64,000 bases of DNA from an uncultured Chloroflexia bacterium (lineage in GTDB: Bacteria > Chloroflexota > Limnocylindria > Limnocylindrales > CSP1-4). The notes under the pieces were generated by a model. That model was given only the letters and a program-made list of their open reading frames with translations. It did not search any database and was not told the DNA's origin. This document shows, piece by piece, positions 6,599 through 62,442 of the stretch. The position numbers and the translations under genes were made by a program. The stretch is taken from assembly GCA_963831745.1 (NCBI GenBank), contig CAWHRD010000004.1, positions 46,005 through 110,004 on the forward strand. The letters are read 5' to 3'. Each line of letters starts with the position of its first letter. Position 1 is the stretch's first letter.

Positions 6599-7548
6599 GC
6601 GATGGCCTCCCCGGCGGCCGCGGCCGCCTCCTGCAGCTCGGCCTTCTCGGCCTTGTCCGCCAGGCCCGGGATCAGGCAGCTCCCGGTCGGCGCGTGGAGC
6701 GGCGCGTCACCGGCCGCCTCGGCCTCGGCCGCCCGCCGGTGGGCGACCTCGAGGGCGTGCGCCTCGAACTCGCGGTAGGTGCCGAGCCGGTCGGCCAGCT
6801 CCCGGAAGTCGACCTGGTGAGCATCGAACTCGGGGCCGTCGACGCAGGCGTAGACGGTCCTCCCGCCGACCTGGACGCGGCAGCCGCCGCACATCCCGGT
6901 TCCGTCGAGCATGATCGCGTTCAGCGACGCGAACGTCGGCACGCCGTAGGGGCGGGTCAGCTCGGCGATGGCGCGCATCATCGGGACCGGGCCGACGGCG
7001 TAGATGGCGTCGATGCCGCCCGCGTCGAGGAGGTCCTTGAGGGCCTCGGTGACGAAGCCGTGCCGGCCGTAGCTGCCGTCGTCGGTGCAGGTGACGACGT
7101 CGCCGGCGAGGTGCAGCTCGTCCTCGAAGATGACCCACTCCTTCGACCGGCCGCCGATGACGCTGGTGACCTTCACGCCAGCCTCGTGGAGCCCGAGGGC
7201 GATCGGGTAGACGACCGCCGTCCCGACGCCGCCGCCGACGCAGACCGCGTGCCCGGACTCGATGAGCTCGGTCGCCCGCCCGAGCGGCCCGGCAACGTCC
7301 TGGATCGCCTCGCCGATCTCGAGCGCCACGAGGTCCTCGGTGCTCTTGCCGACCGCCTGGATCACGAGCGTGATCGTGCCGCGCGTCGCGTCCGCGTCGG
7401 CGATGGTGAGCGGGATCCGCTCAGCGCCGGGGCCGCGATGAACGATGACGAACTGGCCCGGCTTGCGGATCTCCGCGATGCGCGGCGCCTCGATGACCAG
7501 GCGCGTCACGTTCGGGGAGAGCAGGGCCTTGCCGACGACGGTGTGCAT
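6595..7548 (-). CDS. Small subunit of NfnAB / SudAB-type oxidoreductase (PyrK-like FAD / 2Fe-2S electron-transfer subunit)
   Basis: 317 aa from the ATG at 7548 (MHTVVGKALLSPNVTRLVIEAPRIA). FNR-like beta-barrel plus NAD domain and a C-terminal CGGC...C 2Fe-2S motif (DGTGMCGGCRV...YACVDGPEF); its stop overlaps the large-subunit start. Confidence 0.8.
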   Translation of the reverse strand: MHTVVGKALLSPNVTRLVIEAPRIAEIRKPGQFVIVHRGPGAERIPLTIADADATRGTITLVIQAVGKSTEDLVALEIGEAIQDVAGPLGRATELIESGHAVCVGGGVGTAVVYPIALGLHEAGVKVTSVIGGRSKEWVIFEDELHLAGDVVTCTDDGSYGRHGFVTEALKDLLDAGGIDAIYAVGPVPMMRAIAELTRPYGVPTFASLNAIMLDGTGMCGGCRVQVGGRTVYACVDGPEFDAHQVDFRELADRLGTYREFEAHALEVAHRRAAEAEAAGDAPLHAPTGSCLIPGLADKAEKAELQEAAAAAGEAIA

Positions 7549-38922: not shown

Positions 38923-39015
38923 CGTCGTCCGGCTCCTGTGCAGGCGGGGCAGCGCCGGGGGGTGCGTGGCGGGACCCGCGCGGTCGCGTCGTCACGGCGA
39001 TTGTATGGACCGCGA

Positions 39016-39144
39016 CCCGGCGCCGGACGGACGCGCGACCCGGCGCCGGACGGACGCGCGGCGCGGCGCTGGACGGACGCGCGCCCCGGCGCTGGACGGA
39101 CGCGCGCCCCGGCGCTGGACGGACGCGCGGCGCGGCGGGCGCGG
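39016..39144. repeat. Tandem array of five 23-bp repeats plus a partial sixth (consensus CCCGGCGCYGGACGGACGCGCGM) in a divergent promoter region
   Basis: Units at 39016, 39039, 39062, 39085 and 39108. There are no spacers, so this is not a CRISPR array. Confidence 0.7.
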
Positions 39145-41992: not shown

Positions 41993-42290
41993 CCGCCCGG
42001 TCCGGTTCGAGCGTGGTGCCCCGCCCGGTCCGGTTCGAGCGTGGTGCCCCGCGTGGCGTGGCGCGCCGCCCGCTGCGCGGGCCCGGGAGGGCGACTCTCT
42101 GGGGCAGCGGGTGGCGGGCGAGCCGCCACGTGCAGGGCCCGGCCAGCGTACCGGCCAACGCGGCCGGGGTTTCGGGCGAGCCATCCACGTGCACGTCCCG
42201 GGACGGCGTACCGGGTAGCGCGGCCGGGGTGGCGGGCGAGCCATCCACGTGCACGTCCCGGGCCGGCGTACCGGCCAGCGCGGTGCGACG
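41993..42290. repeat. Repeat-rich intergenic region: 28-nt x2 tandem (41993-42048) and about 60-nt x3 tandem (42111-42290; core GGCGGGCGAGCCRYCCACGTGCASGKCCCGG)
   Basis: Direct reading of the sequence. The units share the CACGTGCACG palindromic core. Confidence 0.6.
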
Positions 42291-45891: not shown

Positions 45892-47268
45892 TCAGTGGCC
45901 GAGCGCCTCGTTGCGGATGGACGCCACGTCCTCGAGGCGGCGCCGGATCGCCCCCAGGAACCGTGCGCCCTGCTCGCCGTCGACCAGCCGGTGGTCGGCC
46001 GAGAGGGTCAGCTTCATGATGGACCGCACGGCAAGCCCGTCGCCGATGACGACCGGCGTCGGCAGGGCGCTGGCCACGGCGAGGATGGCCGCCTCGCCGG
46101 GGTTGATGATCGCGCTGAACTCCTCGACGCCGAGCATGCCGAGGTTGCTCACCGTGAAGGTGCCGCCGGTCATCTCGTCGACCGCGAGCGTTCCCTCGCG
46201 GGCCTTCGCGGCGAAGGCCGCGGCCCGGTCGTGGATCTCGGCCACCGGGAGCCGGTCCGCGTCGCGGATGACCGGCACGACCAGGCCACCCGGGACCGCA
46301 ACGGCGAGGCCGAGGTGCACGCGGCGTCGGGGCCAGACCACGACGCCGTCCGTCCGCGCGTTGACGTCCGGGAACTCGGCCAGGGTCTGAGCCGTGGCGG
46401 CCAGGACGAAGTCCGTGACGGTGAGGTTCGTGCCCGCCGCCTTCAGCTCGGCCCGGAGCGCGAGGAGCGCCGTCACGTCGACGGCGACGGTCACGGTGAA
46501 ATGCGGGATCGACGTCCAGCTGGACGTGAGGCGCTCGGCGATGACCCGCCGCATCCGGCTGAGCGGCCGCGGCTCCTCTTCGCCGTCGACCGGGGACCTG
46601 TCGCCCGAGGCGACGGGCCCGGCTGCTGCTCCGGCGCCGCCGCGCGCCGCCGCGGCCATGGGCTGCCCGGGCACGGGCGCGCCGCCGCGCGCCGCCGCGG
46701 CCATGGGCTGCCCGGGCACGGGCGCGCCGCCGCGCGCCGCCGCGGCCGCGGCACGGACGTCGCGCTCGATGATGCGCCCGTCGGGCCCAGTCCCGGCAAC
46801 CGTTCGCGGGTCGACGCCCTCCTCGGCCGCGAGGCGGCTCGCGCGTGGGCTGATCGCGAGACGCCGGTGCGCGCCGCCGGCGGACCGGACGGACGCGGGG
46901 GCGGCCCCGGCCGAACCGGGGGCGGGCGACGCTGCGGGAGGCCCGGCCGTCGGCGCTGGCGCCGACCCGGATTCCGGCCCGGCCATCGCGGGCGCAGCCG
47001 GAGCGGGCACGTCCGCGGGGACCTCATCGCCCTGGGCGCCCACGTAGCCGCAGATCGCGTTGACGGGCACCGTCTCGCCCTCCGCCACGACGCGGCGCAG
47101 GAGGACACCGTCGTCGAACGCCTCGACCTCCATGGCCGACTTGTCCGTCTCGATCTCGAATAGGACGTCCCCCCGGGCCACCGGGTCGCCCTCGCGCTTG
47201 AACCAGGTCGTGAGCGTGCACTCCTCGGTCATCTGGCCGGGCTTGGGCATGCGGATCGCGTGCAGCAT
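45892..47268 (-). CDS. Dihydrolipoamide acyltransferase (E2 component of a 2-oxoacid dehydrogenase complex)
   Basis: Lipoyl domain (IETDKSAMEVEAFDDG), an Ala/Pro-rich linker with an internal 14-aa duplication, the E3-binding domain and the catalytic domain (DHRLVDGEQGARFL). Confidence 0.85.
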   Translation of the reverse strand: MLHAIRMPKPGQMTEECTLTTWFKREGDPVARGDVLFEIETDKSAMEVEAFDDGVLLRRVVAEGETVPVNAICGYVGAQGDEVPADVPAPAAPAMAGPESGSAPAPTAGPPAASPAPGSAGAAPASVRSAGGAHRRLAISPRASRLAAEEGVDPRTVAGTGPDGRIIERDVRAAAAAARGGAPVPGQPMAAAARGGAPVPGQPMAAAARGGAGAAAGPVASGDRSPVDGEEEPRPLSRMRRVIAERLTSSWTSIPHFTVTVAVDVTALLALRAELKAAGTNLTVTDFVLAATAQTLAEFPDVNARTDGVVVWPRRRVHLGLAVAVPGGLVVPVIRDADRLPVAEIHDRAAAFAAKAREGTLAVDEMTGGTFTVSNLGMLGVEEFSAIINPGEAAILAVASALPTPVVIGDGLAVRSIMKLTLSADHRLVDGEQGARFLGAIRRRLEDVASIRNEALGH

Positions 47269-51376: not shown

Positions 51377-51424
51377 TTGACAGGGCGATTCGCGACCCAT
51401 ACTCTTCGTTAATCGATTATCGAG
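51377..51424 (+). promoter_or_regulatory. Candidate sigma-70-type promoter (-35 TTGACA, 17-nt spacer, -10 TACTCT) followed by the palindromic operator TTAATCGATTATCGAG
   Basis: -35 at 51377-51382, -10 at 51400-51405 and the perfect palindrome TAATCGATTA at 51410-51419. The same module recurs at 62393-62442. Confidence 0.5.
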
Positions 51425-56375: not shown

Positions 56376-56406
56376 CCGTCGAGAACCCCACGCTCTGACG
56401 GAGATC

Positions 56407-56445
56407 GAAGGGGGCTCTCCCGCCAACCGGCGGAGGGCCCCCTTC
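56407..56445 (+). terminator. Long imperfect GC hairpin about 30 nt after the binding-protein stop; candidate terminator of the ABC operon
   Basis: gaagggggctctcccgcc-aacc-ggcggagggcccccttc. Confidence 0.45.
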
Positions 56446-56553
56446 CTGCGCAGGGCGGCAGCCCGTCGCGCAACGTGCGGGGCGGCGGACGCCGCCCTCG
56501 ATCGAGGGCAACCTCCGAGCACCGAGGCCCGCGGCGGGCCCGAAGGAGGCGCC

Positions 56554-57231
56554 GTGACAGCGCAGCCCGAGCTCATCTCGCGCAGCGTCCTGGCGGACCA
56601 GGTGAAGGACCGCCTGCTGCAGGACATCCTCGCCGGGCGCTATCCCCCCGAGGCCCGGATCGTCGAGACGAGCCTGGCGCGCGAGCTGGGCGTCAGCCAG
56701 GCCCCGGTCCGCGAGGCGCTGCGCGGCCTCGAGGCCCTGGGGCTCGTCGAGATCCTCCCGTTCCGCGGCGCCCGGATCCGGCGCCCGTCGATCGGGGAGC
56801 TGCTCGAGGCGTACACCGTCCGCTTCGAGCTCGAGGCGCTGGGCGCCCGCCTCGGCGTGCCCCGCATGACGGACGCGGACCTCGCCGACCTCGAGGCGCT
56901 CGGCGACGAGATGCAGCGCGCCGCCGCGGCCGGCGACCGCCACCAGGTCGCCGTCGCCGACGCGATGTTCCACGCCCGGCTCCTCCACCTCGCCGGCAAC
57001 GCGACCCTCGAGCGCGTCTGGCGCTCGCTCGAGCCGTTCAGCCGGACCTACATCACCCTCGTCGCGCCCGGCGCCGACGCCCACTGGACGGCCGACCTCC
57101 ATCCCCGGATCCTCGCCGCCCTCCGCACCCGCGACGCCGAGCAGGTCGTCGCCGCCCTCCGCGAGCACTTCGACGAGGTGGCGGCGCACCTGGCGGACAC
57201 GTGGCATGGCGCACGACATGGGCCCGGCTGA
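56554..57231 (+). CDS. GntR family transcriptional regulator (FadR/FCD subfamily), copy 1
   Basis: wHTH (SLARELGVSQAPVREALRGLEALGLV) plus an FCD C-terminal domain. The GTG start is preceded by GAAGGAGG. Confidence 0.8.
   Translation: MTAQPELISRSVLADQVKDRLLQDILAGRYPPEARIVETSLARELGVSQAPVREALRGLEALGLVEILPFRGARIRRPSIGELLEAYTVRFELEALGARLGVPRMTDADLADLEALGDEMQRAAAAGDRHQVAVADAMFHARLLHLAGNATLERVWRSLEPFSRTYITLVAPGADAHWTADLHPRILAALRTRDAEQVVAALREHFDEVAAHLADTWHGARHGPG
56565..57205 (+). repeat. 641-bp exact direct repeat, copy 1 (covers most of GntR copy 1)
   Basis: Identical at DNA level to 57872..58512. Confidence 0.8.
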
Positions 57232-57790
57232 CCCACCCGCGGCCGTGCCTCGGGACCGGCGTGGGGCGGTCTCGCCGGAGTCCGCGGCGGTCCGGTTGGC
57301 CCGCGACTGCTACCTCGACGACCGGCACGTGTACGGCTGCGCGGAGACGGTGCTCGTCGCCCTCAAGGCCGCGTACGGCCTCGACGACCCGCTGGACTCC
57401 TCGGCGGCAATCGCCCTCAACGGCGGTCTCGCCTGGAGCGGGGGGCCGTGCGGCGCGCTCACTGGGGCGGCGATCGCGGTCGGCATGCTCGCCGAGCGGC
57501 GGCTCGGCGAGCATGCACGGGCGAAGCTCGTCGCGCGCGAGGTGATCGCGGCGCTTCTCGATGCGTTCGTCGTGGAGCACGGCGCCGTCGACTGCCGGGA
57601 CCTGGTCGGCGTCGACCTGCGGGCGCCGGGCGGGCACCAGGCGTTCATCGAGAGCGGTGCCTGGCGGGACGGCTGCCTGCGGCAGATCGAGTTCGTGGTG
57701 GGGCGGCTGGCAGCCCTGGCGGATCTCGCCGAGTGGGACAGGACGGTTCGCACGATCGAGGCGCCGCCCGGCGGCCGACTCGGCGCGTAG
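57206..57790 (+). CDS. C_GCAxxG_C_C family putative redox-active protein
   Basis: YGCAETVLVAL...GGPCGALTGAAIAVG, with downstream Cys residues (VDCRDL, DGCLRQI). Confidence 0.65.
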   Translation: MAHDMGPADPPAAVPRDRRGAVSPESAAVRLARDCYLDDRHVYGCAETVLVALKAAYGLDDPLDSSAAIALNGGLAWSGGPCGALTGAAIAVGMLAERRLGEHARAKLVAREVIAALLDAFVVEHGAVDCRDLVGVDLRAPGGHQAFIESGAWRDGCLRQIEFVVGRLAALADLAEWDRTVRTIEAPPGGRLGA

Positions 57791-57863
57791 ACTGCGGGAG
57801 TGGCGCGACCGGGCGGGGGCGGATCGCCCGGTGACCCGGGCGCCGCCGCGTCGAGGAGGATCG

Positions 57864-58571
57864 ATGACCGGGCCCGAGCTCATCTCGCGCAGCGTCCTGG
57901 CGGACCAGGTGAAGGACCGCCTGCTGCAGGACATCCTCGCCGGGCGCTATCCCCCCGAGGCCCGGATCGTCGAGACGAGCCTGGCGCGCGAGCTGGGCGT
58001 CAGCCAGGCCCCGGTCCGCGAGGCGCTGCGCGGCCTCGAGGCCCTGGGGCTCGTCGAGATCCTCCCGTTCCGCGGCGCCCGGATCCGGCGCCCGTCGATC
58101 GGGGAGCTGCTCGAGGCGTACACCGTCCGCTTCGAGCTCGAGGCGCTGGGCGCCCGCCTCGGCGTGCCCCGCATGACGGACGCGGACCTCGCCGACCTCG
58201 AGGCGCTCGGCGACGAGATGCAGCGCGCCGCCGCGGCCGGCGACCGCCACCAGGTCGCCGTCGCCGACGCGATGTTCCACGCCCGGCTCCTCCACCTCGC
58301 CGGCAACGCGACCCTCGAGCGCGTCTGGCGCTCGCTCGAGCCGTTCAGCCGGACCTACATCACCCTCGTCGCGCCCGGCGCCGACGCCCACTGGACGGCC
58401 GACCTCCATCCCCGGATCCTCGCCGCCCTCCGCACCCGCGACGCCGAGCAGGTCGTCGCCGCCCTCCGCGAGCACTTCGACGAGGTGGCGGCGCACCTGG
58501 CGGACACGTGGGCGGCAAGCCTGCCCGGCGCCACGCTCGCGATCCCGGTCGGCGAGCCGGCCCCGGGCTGA
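57864..58571 (+). CDS. GntR family transcriptional regulator (FadR/FCD subfamily), copy 2 (differs from copy 1 only at the extreme N- and C-termini)
   Basis: RBS GAGGAGGA before the ATG. The 641 internal nt are identical to copy 1. Confidence 0.8.
   Translation: MTGPELISRSVLADQVKDRLLQDILAGRYPPEARIVETSLARELGVSQAPVREALRGLEALGLVEILPFRGARIRRPSIGELLEAYTVRFELEALGARLGVPRMTDADLADLEALGDEMQRAAAAGDRHQVAVADAMFHARLLHLAGNATLERVWRSLEPFSRTYITLVAPGADAHWTADLHPRILAALRTRDAEQVVAALREHFDEVAAHLADTWAASLPGATLAIPVGEPAPG
57872..58512 (+). repeat. 641-bp exact direct repeat, copy 2
   Basis: Identical at DNA level to 56565..57205. Confidence 0.8.
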
Positions 58572-58689: not shown

Positions 58690-59637
58690 TCAGGCGTCGG
58701 CGCGGAGAATCGCCCGCACCTGCTCGGCGACGCGCGACGCCGACAGGCCGTAGATGTCGAGGAGGGCGTCGTTCGGACCCGACTCCGGATAGAGGTCCTG
58801 CAGGCCGATCCGGCTGACCCGGGTGGGTCGGTGCTCCCCCAGCGTCTCCGCCACCGCGCCGCCGAGCCCGCCGAGGACCGTGTGCTCCTCCACGGTGATG
58901 ACCCGGCCCGTCCGCTCGGCGGCCGCGACGATGGCCTCGACGTCGAGGGGCTTCAGCGTCGCGACGTGGAGGACGTGGGCGTCGATGCCGTCGGCGGCGA
59001 GGAGGTCGGCCGCGTCGACCGTCCGCGGCGTCTGGGCGCCGGTGCTGATGAGCGTGACGTCTCGGCCCTCCCGGACGACCTCGGCTCTCCCGAACCGGAA
59101 GATGTGGTCGTCGGCAAAGAGCCGCTGGGTGGGGTCGCGGACGAGGCGCACGTAGCACGGTCCCTCGTACGCGGCCGCCCAGCGCAGGGCCTGGGCGGCC
59201 TCGACATCGTCGGCTGGGGCGACGCTGACCATGCCCGGCATCGCCCGCATGATCGTCAGGTCGTCGACGATGATGTGGCTCATCCCCGTCTGCCCCGTGA
59301 AGAGCCCGGAGTAGCTCGGCGTGATCTTCACGTTGGCGCCCGTCTGGGCGATGAGCACCCGGATCTGGTCGAGAGGCCGGACCACGGCGAACGAGACGAA
59401 CGTGCTGATGAACGGCACCAGGCCCATCGTCGCCATGCCGGCGGCGACGCCGAGCATGTTCTGCTCGGCGATCCCCATCTGGAAGTACTTGTCCGGGTGG
59501 GCCTTCTCGAAGATGTCGGCCCGGGTGGAGCTGCCGACGTCGCCGTCGAGCATGACGACGCGCGGGTCGTCGTCGGCGATCGCGGCAACCGTCTCGCCGA
59601 AGATCTCCCGCATGGCGCGTCCGATCGGCAGGGTCAT
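58690..59637 (-). CDS. Transketolase, C-terminal subunit (split transketolase; Pyr plus C-terminal domains)
   Basis: 315 aa (MTLPIGRAMREIFGE...GIAEQNM...). ATGA overlap with the upstream N-terminal subunit. Confidence 0.85.
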   Translation of the reverse strand: MTLPIGRAMREIFGETVAAIADDDPRVVMLDGDVGSSTRADIFEKAHPDKYFQMGIAEQNMLGVAAGMATMGLVPFISTFVSFAVVRPLDQIRVLIAQTGANVKITPSYSGLFTGQTGMSHIIVDDLTIMRAMPGMVSVAPADDVEAAQALRWAAAYEGPCYVRLVRDPTQRLFADDHIFRFGRAEVVREGRDVTLISTGAQTPRTVDAADLLAADGIDAHVLHVATLKPLDVEAIVAAAERTGRVITVEEHTVLGGLGGAVAETLGEHRPTRVSRIGLQDLYPESGPNDALLDIYGLSASRVAEQVRAILRADA

Positions 59638-60899
59638 CGCGAAGCTCCTTCGCCGACCGGGTCCGGCTCGCCGAGCTCGGCCATCGCCTGGGCGAGCTCC
59701 TCGGGCTTGATGACTCGCGTGTGCCAGTAGTAGTGGCCCTCCATGAACGAGACGCCCTTCCCCTTGACCGTGTGGGCGATGACCGCGGTCGGGCGGCCGT
59801 CGTCGCCGTCGGCCGCCGTGCCGAGGACGCGGAGGATGTCGGGCATGTCGTGGCCGTCCATCTCGAGGACCCGCCATCCGAAGGCTTCCCACTTCGCGAC
59901 GAGCTCGCCCGGCACCTGGGGCGGGATGCGGCCGTCGGGCCCGTCGCCCGGCCAGCCGTACTGCTGCAGCCGGTTGTGGTCGACGATCGCGACGAGGTTC
60001 GAGAGCCGGTGGCGCGAGGCGGCCATGGCGGCCTCCCAGACCTCCCCCTCCTGGCACTCTCCGTCGCCGAGCATGACCCAGGCCCGCACGTCTCGGCCCG
60101 TGAGGCGGGCACCGAGCGCCATCCCCATCGCCGCCGAGATCCCCATGCCGAGCGACCCGCTCGACATGTCGAGCCCCGGCAGGCGGGTCATGTCGGGATG
60201 GCCCTGGAGGCGCGAGTTGGCGGCGTCGAACGTCGCGAGCTCCTCGACGGGGAAGTACCCGCGGAGCGCCATCGCGGCGTAGAGGCCGATCGACGAGTGG
60301 CCCTTCGACAGGACGAAGCGATCGCGATCCGGCCAGGCGGGCTCGTCGGGCCGGATGCGCAGCATCCGGAAGTAGAGCGCGGCGAGCATGTCCGCGGCCG
60401 AGAGGGGGCCGCCGATATGGCCGGCCTTCGCGATGTAGACGCTCCGGATGACCTCGACCCGGATCCGGCGCGCGACCTCCTGGAGGCGGGCGATCTCGCC
60501 GGCGTCCACGCCGGCGGCGAGCGACCCGCTCATGACCGGCCCTTCCGCTCGTACGACCCGGGCACCACCGGCGGGGAGAAGAAGCAGACGAGCTCGAGGG
60601 GCTCGGGCCCGTCCGATTTCGGTCGCGTGGAACGTGCCGACCGGGACCCAGACCGTCACGCCGGGCTCGACCTCCGCGGTTGCCTCGGGCGTCACGATCC
60701 GGCCGCGCCCCGCCGCGCAGTAGATCGTCTCCTCCTGCGTGTCGTGGACGTGGCCCGCCGGCTTCGAGCCGGGAGGGAAGATCGAGACCCCCATCGAGAC
60801 ACGCTCCGTCGGCGCGTTGTGCGGCCCAACGTACGTGTACCAGGCGCGCCCGGGCAGCGGGAAGAGCTCGGCCTCGTCGCGAGCCACTCGCTTGATCAT
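59634..60899 (-). CDS. Cupin-domain protein fused in frame to the transketolase N-terminal (ThDP-binding) subunit; alternatively an internal restart at ATG 60533 gives a stand-alone TktN
   Basis: N-terminal about 100 aa cupin (GHVHDTQEETIYCAAGRG...VPVGTFHATEIG) with no stop before MSGSLAAG...GHIGGPLSAADM...GDGECQEG (transketolase N-terminal motifs). Confidence 0.75.
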   Translation of the reverse strand: MIKRVARDEAELFPLPGRAWYTYVGPHNAPTERVSMGVSIFPPGSKPAGHVHDTQEETIYCAAGRGRIVTPEATAEVEPGVTVWVPVGTFHATEIGRARAPRARLLLLPAGGARVVRAEGPVMSGSLAAGVDAGEIARLQEVARRIRVEVIRSVYIAKAGHIGGPLSAADMLAALYFRMLRIRPDEPAWPDRDRFVLSKGHSSIGLYAAMALRGYFPVEELATFDAANSRLQGHPDMTRLPGLDMSSGSLGMGISAAMGMALGARLTGRDVRAWVMLGDGECQEGEVWEAAMAASRHRLSNLVAIVDHNRLQQYGWPGDGPDGRIPPQVPGELVAKWEAFGWRVLEMDGHDMPDILRVLGTAADGDDGRPTAVIAHTVKGKGVSFMEGHYYWHTRVIKPEELAQAMAELGEPDPVGEGASR

Positions 60900-60949
60900 G
60901 CGACACCTCTTGGGTCCGTGCGGATTTGGGGTGGGCGGTGGGCGTGGGG

Positions 60950-62044
60950 TCAGGCCGGCCGGGCGTCGGGATCGGGCAGGACGAGGTCGCGGATCGCCGC
61001 CTGCAGGTCGTGATATGACTTGACGAAGGTGCGCAGCGTGCGTGCGCTCGCGCCGAAGGCCTCGAACTCGTCGGGGGTCATTCCGTCCGGTTCGTAGGCC
61101 CGGCGGAAGTCGGGGACGCGCTCGTAGAGGTCGGCGATCAGCGCCGGGTCGACCGGCACGTCCATGCGCGGCTCGGGGGCGATCCCGCTCTTGTTGAAGC
61201 GGACCTGCCAGGGGTGGGGGAGGGTCATGCTCACGTCGCCGCCCACCAGCTCGGTCCAGTGCAGGCGGTGGCGGTACGCCGCGGCCAGCATCCGCGAGCG
61301 GTAGCCTCGCTCGCGGAAGATGCCGTACGCGCGCTTGAAGGCGGCGATCCCCGCCCAGTTCGGCGCGTCGGGGTGCACTGCGAGGTCGTCCCGCTCGACG
61401 AGGACCTTCATCCAGTCGTCGAGGCGGCCGATCATGATCGTGACGATCGGCGACATCGACGCAGTGTCGCCGCCGGCTGCCGCCCGCCGGGCCAGGCCGC
61501 GCTCCACGGCCTCGGCGGCGGCGACCGCCTGGGCGACCGTGAAGCTCACCGTGGCGTTGATGTTGACGCCGCGGAAGGTCGCCTCCTCGATGGCCGCGAT
61601 GCCGGCCGCCGTCGCCGGGAACTTCACCTGGATGTTGGGGGCGAGCCCCGCGAAGCGGACCGCCTGGTCGACCATCCGGACCGGGTCCCGATGGTTCGCC
61701 GGGTTCGTCTGGACGGAGAGACGGCCTGCGCTTCCGTTGCGAGCTTCGAACACCGGCTGCAGGATCCCGGCACCCCGGGAGGCCATCTCCTCGATGATCG
61801 CCCAGGTCAGCTCCACCTCGGACCAGGCGGGGTTGGCCGCGGCCATCTCGTGGACGCGGGGCGCCCAGTGGGCCCGTTCCTTCTTCATCACGTCGAGCAC
61901 GATGCTCGGGTTCGACGTCGCGCCGGTCGCTCCGCGCTCGACCGCGTATGCCAGCTCGTCGACGGCGCAGGAATTGTTCCAGTACTGGGTGGGCGTCTCC
62001 TGGGTCATTCGCAGGAGCGGGCTGTCGAGCGCGGTCATGACCAT
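60950..62044 (-). CDS. Transaldolase family protein (second copy in the window, long form)
   Basis: TQYWNNSC...TSNPSIVLD...QVKFPAT: transaldolase motifs. Start at the ATG giving MVMTALDSP. Confidence 0.75.
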   Translation of the reverse strand: MVMTALDSPLLRMTQETPTQYWNNSCAVDELAYAVERGATGATSNPSIVLDVMKKERAHWAPRVHEMAAANPAWSEVELTWAIIEEMASRGAGILQPVFEARNGSAGRLSVQTNPANHRDPVRMVDQAVRFAGLAPNIQVKFPATAAGIAAIEEATFRGVNINATVSFTVAQAVAAAEAVERGLARRAAAGGDTASMSPIVTIMIGRLDDWMKVLVERDDLAVHPDAPNWAGIAAFKRAYGIFRERGYRSRMLAAAYRHRLHWTELVGGDVSMTLPHPWQVRFNKSGIAPEPRMDVPVDPALIADLYERVPDFRRAYEPDGMTPDEFEAFGASARTLRTFVKSYHDLQAAIRDLVLPDPDARPA

Positions 62045-62392
62045 GGGGTCACCTCTGCGTGGAAGCGTGCCGGTCGGGCGCCAGGATGGGGCCGATGCAG
62101 GACGCCGCCCAGCTTCCGCCGATCTTCCCGGCGACGACGACCAGGCGTCGGACCGTCGTGGGCCTTGCCCTGCCGCGTGTTCGCCCCCATCCGCCTCCCT
62201 GTTGTGGATCGCGCGTCTCGCGTGCAGGCACATAATCGATCATCGATGCTTCTCGCGCAAGAGGGAAACTGGCGGGGTTGGCGTGGCGTCTCATCCGGGA
62301 AGACCCGGAGCGGGCTCACCCCGTGCCGGTGACCGCCGGCCGCCGCCCGTGCGCGTGCCGGCCGGCAACGAGCGGACGAAGCACGGCGAGGA

Positions 62393-62442
62393 CTTGACGC
62401 GGCCCGGCCTCGGTTCGTATCTTATCGGTAATCGATTATCGA
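62393..62442 (+). promoter_or_regulatory. Candidate promoter (-35 TTGACG, 18-nt spacer, -10 TATCTT) followed by the operator GTAATCGATTATCGAG; second copy of the module at 51377-51424
   Basis: -35 at 62393-62398, -10 at 62417-62422 and the palindrome TAATCGATTA at 62428-62437. It lies 80 nt upstream of the UPF0261 gene. Confidence 0.5.

Follow-up and report, generated by a model that had tools for sequence, protein, structure and literature searches.

Recurrent gene conversion probably explains an exact 640-bp direct repeat within two GntR regulator genes of an uncultured Chloroflexota bacterium

Introduction

How can two neighboring genes be identical at every nucleotide of their homologous stretch and still begin and end differently? 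This question is raised by a 64,000-nucleotide stretch of DNA (the window) from an uncultured Chloroflexia bacterium (Chloroflexota; Limnocylindria; Limnocylindrales; CSP1-4). The window is from contig CAWHRD010000004.1 of GenBank assembly GCA_963831745.1, positions 46,005 to 110,004 of the forward strand. It contains two genes for GntR-type regulators, which we will call GntR-A and GntR-B, on either side of a gene of the C_GCAxxG_C_C family (C_GCAxxG for short). The original prediction, made from the sequence alone, noticed that the two regulators share an exact direct repeat, and attributed it to a very recent duplication, to gene conversion, or to an assembly error. Here, we compare the locus with its counterparts in other genomes. 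The two regulators turn out to be an old pair, and recurrent gene conversion between these paralogs very probably explains the repeat.

An exact repeat within two intact regulator genes

By comparing the window with itself, we found that positions 56565–57204 and 57872–58511 of the forward strand are a maximal exact direct match of 640 bp, with a spacing of 1307 bp (a self-blastn likewise gave 100% identity over 640 bp). The match ends abruptly at both borders (A at 56564 versus G at 57871, and C at 57205 versus G at 58512), and the locus holds 1.49 periods of a 1307-bp unit. At an offset of 1307, 611 30-mers are shared. This is the sole long exact repeat within the 64-kb window, and no inverted 30-mers were found there. 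The window has 73% G+C and no N. Chance cannot account for identity over 640 bp.

The first copy of the repeat is the homogenised core of GntR-A (56554–57231, forward strand; 225 amino acids), and the second is the homogenised core of GntR-B (57864–58571, forward strand; 235 amino acids). GntR-A starts with GTG, preceded by the ribosome-binding site GAAGGAGGCGCC, and has a head of its own (VTAQ) and a short tail of its own (HGARHGPG, the last 8 codons, 57205–57228). GntR-B starts with ATG, preceded by the ribosome-binding site GAGGAGGATCG, and has its own head (MTG) and its own tail of 19 residues (AASLPGATLAIPVGEPAPG, 58512–58568). Between these ends, the proteins have 213 amino acids in common (residues 5–217 of GntR-A and 4–216 of GntR-B). 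Both copies match the GntR winged helix-turn-helix domain (PF00392; 7.3e-17 for GntR-A and 8.5e-17 for GntR-B) and the FCD domain (PF07729; 2e-25 and 2.3e-25), and these matches exceed Pfam's curated cut-offs. Both genes are intact, with the full two-domain architecture, and on the strength of these domain matches we assign both to the FadR subfamily of the GntR family.

The gene between them (57206–57790, forward strand; 194 amino acids from its first ATG) encodes a putative redox protein. It matches PF09719 (7.8e-17; 61.9 bits, against a cut-off of 27), and the family's cysteines can be read by eye in its translation (YGCAETV, GPCGALTG, VDCRDL, and DGCLRQ). Its start is uncertain, as ATG 57206, ATG 57218, and GTG 57245 share a frame. 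It may be translationally coupled to GntR-A, whose end it overlaps.

These results confirm the original prediction's reading of the locus as a C_GCAxxG_C_C gene flanked by two GntR genes (all three have Pfam matches), and they adjust its details. The repeat had been given as 641 bp; the spacing of 1307 bp was right, but the extra base at the 3' end is the mismatch between 57205 and 58512. The two regulators do differ only at their ends, but by their first 3–4 codons and by their last 8 (GntR-A) or 19 (GntR-B) codons, rather than by about 5 and about 15.

The two regulators are an old, orthologous pair

We will refer to the window's locus as WIN, to the loci of its relatives by L-numbers, and to database proteins by P-numbers (GntR-A has the same sequence as P0002, and GntR-B as P0001). 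The nearest relatives are uncultured Chloroflexota that are recorded as Chloroflexia or Candidatus Limnocylindria. Many of them are from the Microflora Danica (MFD) long-read project, whose genomes are Flye assemblies of Nanopore reads with Medaka polishing (PMC12313526).

The matches of a protein search fell into two length classes, of about 225 and about 235 amino acids, and some contigs carry one of each. Eight loci (WIN, L001, L002, L003, L080, L081, L084, and L095) have both genes in the same order: an ABC transporter operon (permeases, ATPases, and the binding protein directly before GntR-A), GntR-A, the C_GCAxxG gene, GntR-B, and a convergent split transketolase. The original prediction had suggested looking for single- and double-copy states in related loci, and both occur: besides these eight, other loci have copy A only or copy B only.

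The two copies can also be told apart by their flanks. Copy A is marked by the site ggaggaggcgccGTG, which 10 loci conserve, and the region upstream of GntR-A, including a hairpin that we describe below, likewise aligns across 10 loci. In A copies, ggaggaggcgcc always precedes a GTG start (ATG in L082 and L083) and a VTAQRE-type head. In B copies, the conserved site is always cgaggaggatcgATG, and the head is of the M(T/A)E(R/G)D type. When head regions are compared between genomes, those of the same copy type are 74% identical, versus 56% for different types. At the other end, B copies share the C-terminal motif PD..HA[IV]PVGEP, while A copies end in a variable tail of 8–9 residues. Given the conserved gene order, the copy-specific ribosome-binding sites and heads, and the aligned sequence upstream of copy A, the duplication predates the splits between these species.

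More distant genomes have the C_GCAxxG gene, one GntR gene, and the convergent transketolase, with the ABC operon lying beyond the transketolase genes. This single-GntR layout suggests that a copy B beside the C_GCAxxG gene is ancestral. Copy A probably entered the locus through the same rearrangement as the ABC operon.

Concerted evolution of the cores

Within WIN, L003, and L080, copies A and B are 100% identical over 640, 630, and 608 bp, respectively, and within L084 they agree at 629 of 630 bp (99.8%). In L081, the identical tract is about 495 bp long and its flanks are homologous but diverged (70–80% identical). In the remaining three loci, A and B are only 82.9% (L001), 83.4% (L002), and 81.4% (L095) identical. 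The cores of different genomes are 84–89% identical. So in five loci the paralogs are closer to each other than to their orthologs (100% identity in WIN, L003, L080, and L081, and 100% over the compared columns in L084). Similarly, in a neighbor-joining tree of the core, copies group by genome, not by copy type.

The homogenised tracts do not share the same ends. In alignment columns, they run from 65 to 706 in WIN, from 75 to 706 in L003 and L084, from 69 to 678 in L080, and from about 105 to about 600 in L081. In all five homogenised pairs, runs of agreeing polymorphic sites were longer than in 10,000 permutations (P ≤ 1e-4); the same test was not significant for the L001 pair. The cores of L003 and L084 are 98.4% identical, with 10 differences in the tract, and all 10 of these are present in both copies of each genome, which implies at least one conversion after those lineages split. 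In the other double-copy loci, the C_GCAxxG orthologs flanked by A and B diverge at the normal rate between species. We rejected purifying selection alone as the cause of the identity, as synonymous sites are identical too.

We propose that GntR-A and GntR-B are tandem paralogs, in the same orientation and 1.3 kb apart, that arose before the split of several Limnocylindria-like Chloroflexota species. Homologous recombination, presumably by RecA-type machinery, would repeatedly copy one core over the other (non-reciprocal gene conversion). The flanks are not homologous and so would stay distinct: the promoter, the ribosome-binding site, the first 3–4 codons, and the C-terminal tail. The same direct repeats could also serve as substrates for crossover, which would delete the C_GCAxxG gene and leave one hybrid with the head of A and the tail of B. 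Our proposal makes the combination of identical regulators and different termini, which had been called unusual, less so: the termini are the parts that lie outside of the homologous stretch. The tail motif of copy B is conserved nonetheless.

In the window, the tract spans the entire stretch that is homologous between A and B. At the 5' end, copy B reads MTG|PELISRS, where PELISRS is A-type (other B copies have xxDAISRS). At the 3' end, both copies read AHLADTW, which is also A-type (unconverted B copies have RLAEEW). And in the core tree, the converted cores group with A-only genomes, not with L001_B (copy B of L001) or with B-only genomes. From these A-like ends of copy B and from this grouping, we infer that the last conversion in the window most likely ran from A to B. 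The lack of any difference in 640 bp suggests that it was recent.

Of the B copies, only L001_B retains a core that groups with B-only genomes. This copy (7512–8130 of L001) is split into two reading-frame segments, so it is either a pseudogene or affected by Nanopore indel errors.

Lost copies and hybrid genes

Among the A-only loci, L082, L083, and L085 have a metallophosphoesterase gene in the position of GntR-B. Another locus that is otherwise A-only, L086, retains a 66-bp remnant of the 5' end of GntR-B (7288–7353, 80% identity), which implies that GntR-B was lost by deletion in that lineage.

L087–L091 lack the C_GCAxxG gene. Their one regulator gene joins an A head to a B tail and lies directly between the genes for the binding protein and the transketolase. 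The sequence is identical in L087–L090, which are four Logan assemblies, each of a different run; L091 is a contig from JGI. Through its head and core, the L087 gene is A-like and most similar to copy A of L095, and only its tail is B-like. Judging from its sequence, this hybrid is plausibly the product that would be expected from a crossover between the repeats. A short-read assembly could also yield such a hybrid by skipping the loop. However, the core residues LLLDIM of the L087 protein are in none of the 120 listed homologs (examined by eye, with no formal search), which weighs against loop skipping as the origin of the hybrid.

Proteins with the reverse combination, a B head and an A tail, are also present in the databases (P0024, P0034, P0036, P0044, P0052, P0055, and P0057). 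We considered that these might be the junctions of amplified units. But they are from contigs of 815–1389 bp, mostly 1.2–1.4 kb, or about one 1.3-kb period of the repeat, so they are probably from short-read contigs in which the loop collapsed, and we set amplification junctions aside. If they are collapsed loops, then homogenised pairs would be common in nature, and the databases hold chimeric entries for this family.

The gene order is odd on a JGI contig, L092 (1–2318): a C_GCAxxG gene that is present only as its 3' end is followed by a metallophosphoesterase gene (reverse strand), a GntR gene with a B head and an A tail, and then a C_GCAxxG gene. The ends of this contig overlap by 95 nt at 97.9% identity. 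Either a second copy of the C_GCAxxG gene or a tandem unit of 2.2 kb could account for this.

The original prediction expected the direct repeats to promote both loss and amplification of the gene between them. Loss is plausible, as seen in L087–L091 and with the caveat about short reads given above. Amplification found no support, in that no triplicated locus was seen.

Alternative explanations

A few points weigh against recurrent gene conversion. The evidence for its direction in the window consists of a few diagnostic residues; the 26 diagnostic nucleotide sites are weak, and although mostly A-like they form a mosaic, which suggests earlier exchanges in both directions. When the tails were compared as nucleotides, the copy types did not separate (the tails are too short and G+C-rich), and we typed them by the protein motif and the neighboring genes. 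The window's contig is known from its assembly alone, and its sequencing technology is inferred. Finally, sequence by itself cannot separate non-reciprocal conversion from cycles of unequal crossover.

Such cycles, in which the 1307-bp unit would be amplified by reciprocal unequal crossover and then deleted back to two copies, are the alternative that fares best, but we still consider them quite unlikely. The L087–L091 hybrids, with their A head, B tail, and missing C_GCAxxG gene, are of the deletion type, and proteins of the amplification-junction type (B head and A tail) are in the databases. As explained above, the latter are probably collapsed loops, and the lack of triplicated loci also speaks against amplification. 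Furthermore, unequal crossover should have homogenised the spacer as well, or sometimes lost it, and it would hardly produce the internal tract in L081, both of whose ends lie inside homologous sequence that has diverged.

An artefact of assembly or polishing, with one copy in reality or with two diverged copies that were homogenised in the consensus, seems very unlikely. Identical repeats are a classic site of assembly errors, and the B-head/A-tail chimeras on contigs of 1.2–1.4 kb imply that short-read assemblers mishandle this locus. But five assemblies that come from at least two projects share the structure and differ in their tract ends, and L084 is from an unrelated NCBI assembly. The MFD genomes that have the pattern are Nanopore/Flye assemblies with multi-megabase contigs, and their reads are expected to span the 1.9-kb structure (we did not check their lengths). 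This pipeline does not homogenise paralogs by default, since it also gave the diverged copies of L001 and the partial tract of L081. In the window, a unique spacer joins the two copies; if there were really one copy, it would have to lie on a 1.3-kb circle. A junction 26-mer that is specific to the window had no match in a metagenome scan, and hence there were no contigs from the same species for a single-copy test.

The least credible alternative is a very recent duplication in this lineage only, in which 640 bp of a lone GntR gene were copied to the far side of the C_GCAxxG gene: this would explain the perfect identity, the abrupt ends, and the 1.49 periods of the 1307-bp unit, but the same two genes are present in seven other loci with copy-specific ribosome-binding sites, heads, and neighbors, the copies are 17–19% diverged in three of those seven, the tail motif of copy B is common to the B copies of other species, and a simple tandem event predicts periodic sequence of 2 × 1307 bp, which is not seen.

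Of the origins that the original prediction listed, then, gene conversion is the one that we retain; the orthologous layout and the pairs that are 81–83% identical speak against a recent duplication, and recurrence across independent assemblies makes an artefact unlikely.

Genomic context and a candidate operator

The pair follows, in the same orientation, an ABC transporter operon of the Liv type, which encodes two permeases, two ATPases, and a Peripla_BP_6 binding protein. Downstream are the convergent split transketolase, then a transaldolase, and then a divergent UPF0261 gene. Two features of the downstream genes differ from the relatives. At 59634–60899, a cupin domain is fused to the N-terminal part of the transketolase (421 amino acids), while relatives have a separate cupin of 122 amino acids. 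And at 60900–60950, between the transketolase part and the transaldolase, there is no aldehyde dehydrogenase gene, while relatives carry one there that encodes about 508 amino acids.

There is a strong hairpin on the forward strand at 56391–56457, 3' of the gene for the substrate-binding protein (minimum free energy −52.1 kcal/mol, z = −4.6), and it is conserved in 10 loci. It is likely to be a terminator or an RNA-stabilising element of the kind that is typical of high-G+C genomes. The hairpin probably ends the transcript of the ABC operon, which would leave GntR-A with its own promoter. A scan of 56.3–58.75 kb for consensus promoters and terminators gave no match, as expected at 73% G+C, and the terminator scan missed the hairpin because it has no T-run. 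The intergenic sequences upstream and downstream of GntR-B fold no better than shuffled sequence.

Upstream of GntR-B, TAGACTGCG is conserved about 26–30 nt before the start codon in L002, L003, L080, and L084. The TAGACT within this motif fits a TANNNT −10 box, so GntR-B may be transcribed from a promoter of its own. In the window, the motif (57788–57796) overlaps the stop codon of the C_GCAxxG gene and lies 67 nt before the ATG; given this distance, about 40 nt of G+C-rich sequence was apparently inserted.

What might these proteins regulate? Since their DNA-binding and effector domains are identical, GntR-A and GntR-B should share both an operator and a ligand, as far as can be judged from sequence. 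We identified an AT-rich palindrome, TTAATCGATTAT, as a candidate operator at 51409–51420, directly 3' of a conserved promoter of the ABC operon (TTGACA-17-TACTCT). A second copy is at the start of the transaldolase-transketolase operon (62232–62243) and a third, GTAATCGATTAT, is at the start of the UPF0261 gene (62428–62439), so these two copies are at two divergent promoters between transaldolase and UPF0261. The consensus is roughly CGATAATCGATTATCG. With up to 1 mismatch, motifs of this type were found at most (about 45) of the 56 Chloroflexota loci with this GntR family from a genome scan, and at none of the distant actinobacterial loci. The palindrome is probably the operator of a sugar-catabolic regulon, and the regulator that binds it could be either the GntR pair or the DeoR regulator that is encoded nearby, upstream.

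We also considered a broader role for the repeat. Selection, rather than neutral processes, might keep the cores identical because of shared operators or mixed dimers; the expression signals and the tail of copy B might provide a second output (by contacting a partner or as a degradation signal); and recombination between the repeats might work as a reversible switch, by which the C_GCAxxG gene would be deleted or amplified within populations. Such a selective benefit is a speculation, and we think it improbable.

Elsewhere in the window, there are tandem repeats at 46634–46747 (a perfect 45-bp unit, 2.5 copies), at 39007–39137 (a 23-bp unit, 5.7 copies, 92% matches), and at 42109–42283 (a 60-bp unit, 3 copies, 85% matches).

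Comparison with known systems

In our reading, the repeat results neither from an error nor from a fresh duplication. Instead, tandem paralogs of a transcription factor in an uncultured soil lineage provide a clean natural example of recurrent gene conversion, and the relatives appear to show each outcome that would be expected: unconverted pairs, partly and fully converted pairs, the loss of one copy, and a probable deletion by crossover. Overall, this is a clear but ordinary case of concerted evolution; it would not surprise a specialist, and it opens no long-standing question. It does call for caution. The locus yields chimeric proteins and loop contigs in short-read metagenome assemblies, and phylogenies of these regulators will wrongly suggest lineage-specific duplications.

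As regulators, both copies in the window resemble other FadR-subfamily GntR proteins in having the full architecture of a winged helix-turn-helix and an FCD domain. Many GntR operators have GT...AC half-sites. The CGATAATCGATTATCG-like palindrome, which is the sole candidate at the locus, differs from typical GntR operators in lacking these half-sites, and it may instead belong to the DeoR regulator.

The L087–L091 hybrids resemble known fusions of tandem paralogs, formed by homologous-recombination deletion, such as those in E. coli evolution experiments (PMC13626634). In such fusions, a crossover between direct-repeat paralogs makes one hybrid gene and drops the intervening DNA, and L087–L091 look like this. 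They differ from those experiments in being natural variants on metagenome contigs, which short-read assembly could mimic.

The closest parallel is the tufA/tufB pair, whose concerted evolution in Salmonella and other bacteria is ascribed to RecA-dependent gene conversion (summarised in PMC6053082). The tuf copies lie at distant sites, often in inverted orientation, and their product is an essential protein that is expressed at high levels. In contrast, the GntR copies are direct repeats that are 1.3 kb apart, they encode a pathway-specific transcription factor, and their homogenisation is patchy (3 of the 8 loci have diverged copies). In other respects, the two systems are alike. Both are old pairs that are nearly identical within a genome and diverge between species, the copies have their own flanks and contexts, conversion recurs over long periods, and one copy has been lost in some lineages.

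The survey of Wang and Chen (2018) reports recurrent concerted evolution for only 26 prokaryotic genes, mostly subunits of core complexes, and the gene lists that we examined include no winged-helix regulators (PMC6053082). Compared with the genes of that survey, the GntR pair appears to have a much shallower time depth, since its cores are about 85–90% identical between species. But the sign of concerted evolution is the one on which the survey relies: paralogs that are closer to each other than to their syntenic orthologs, repeatedly and across species.

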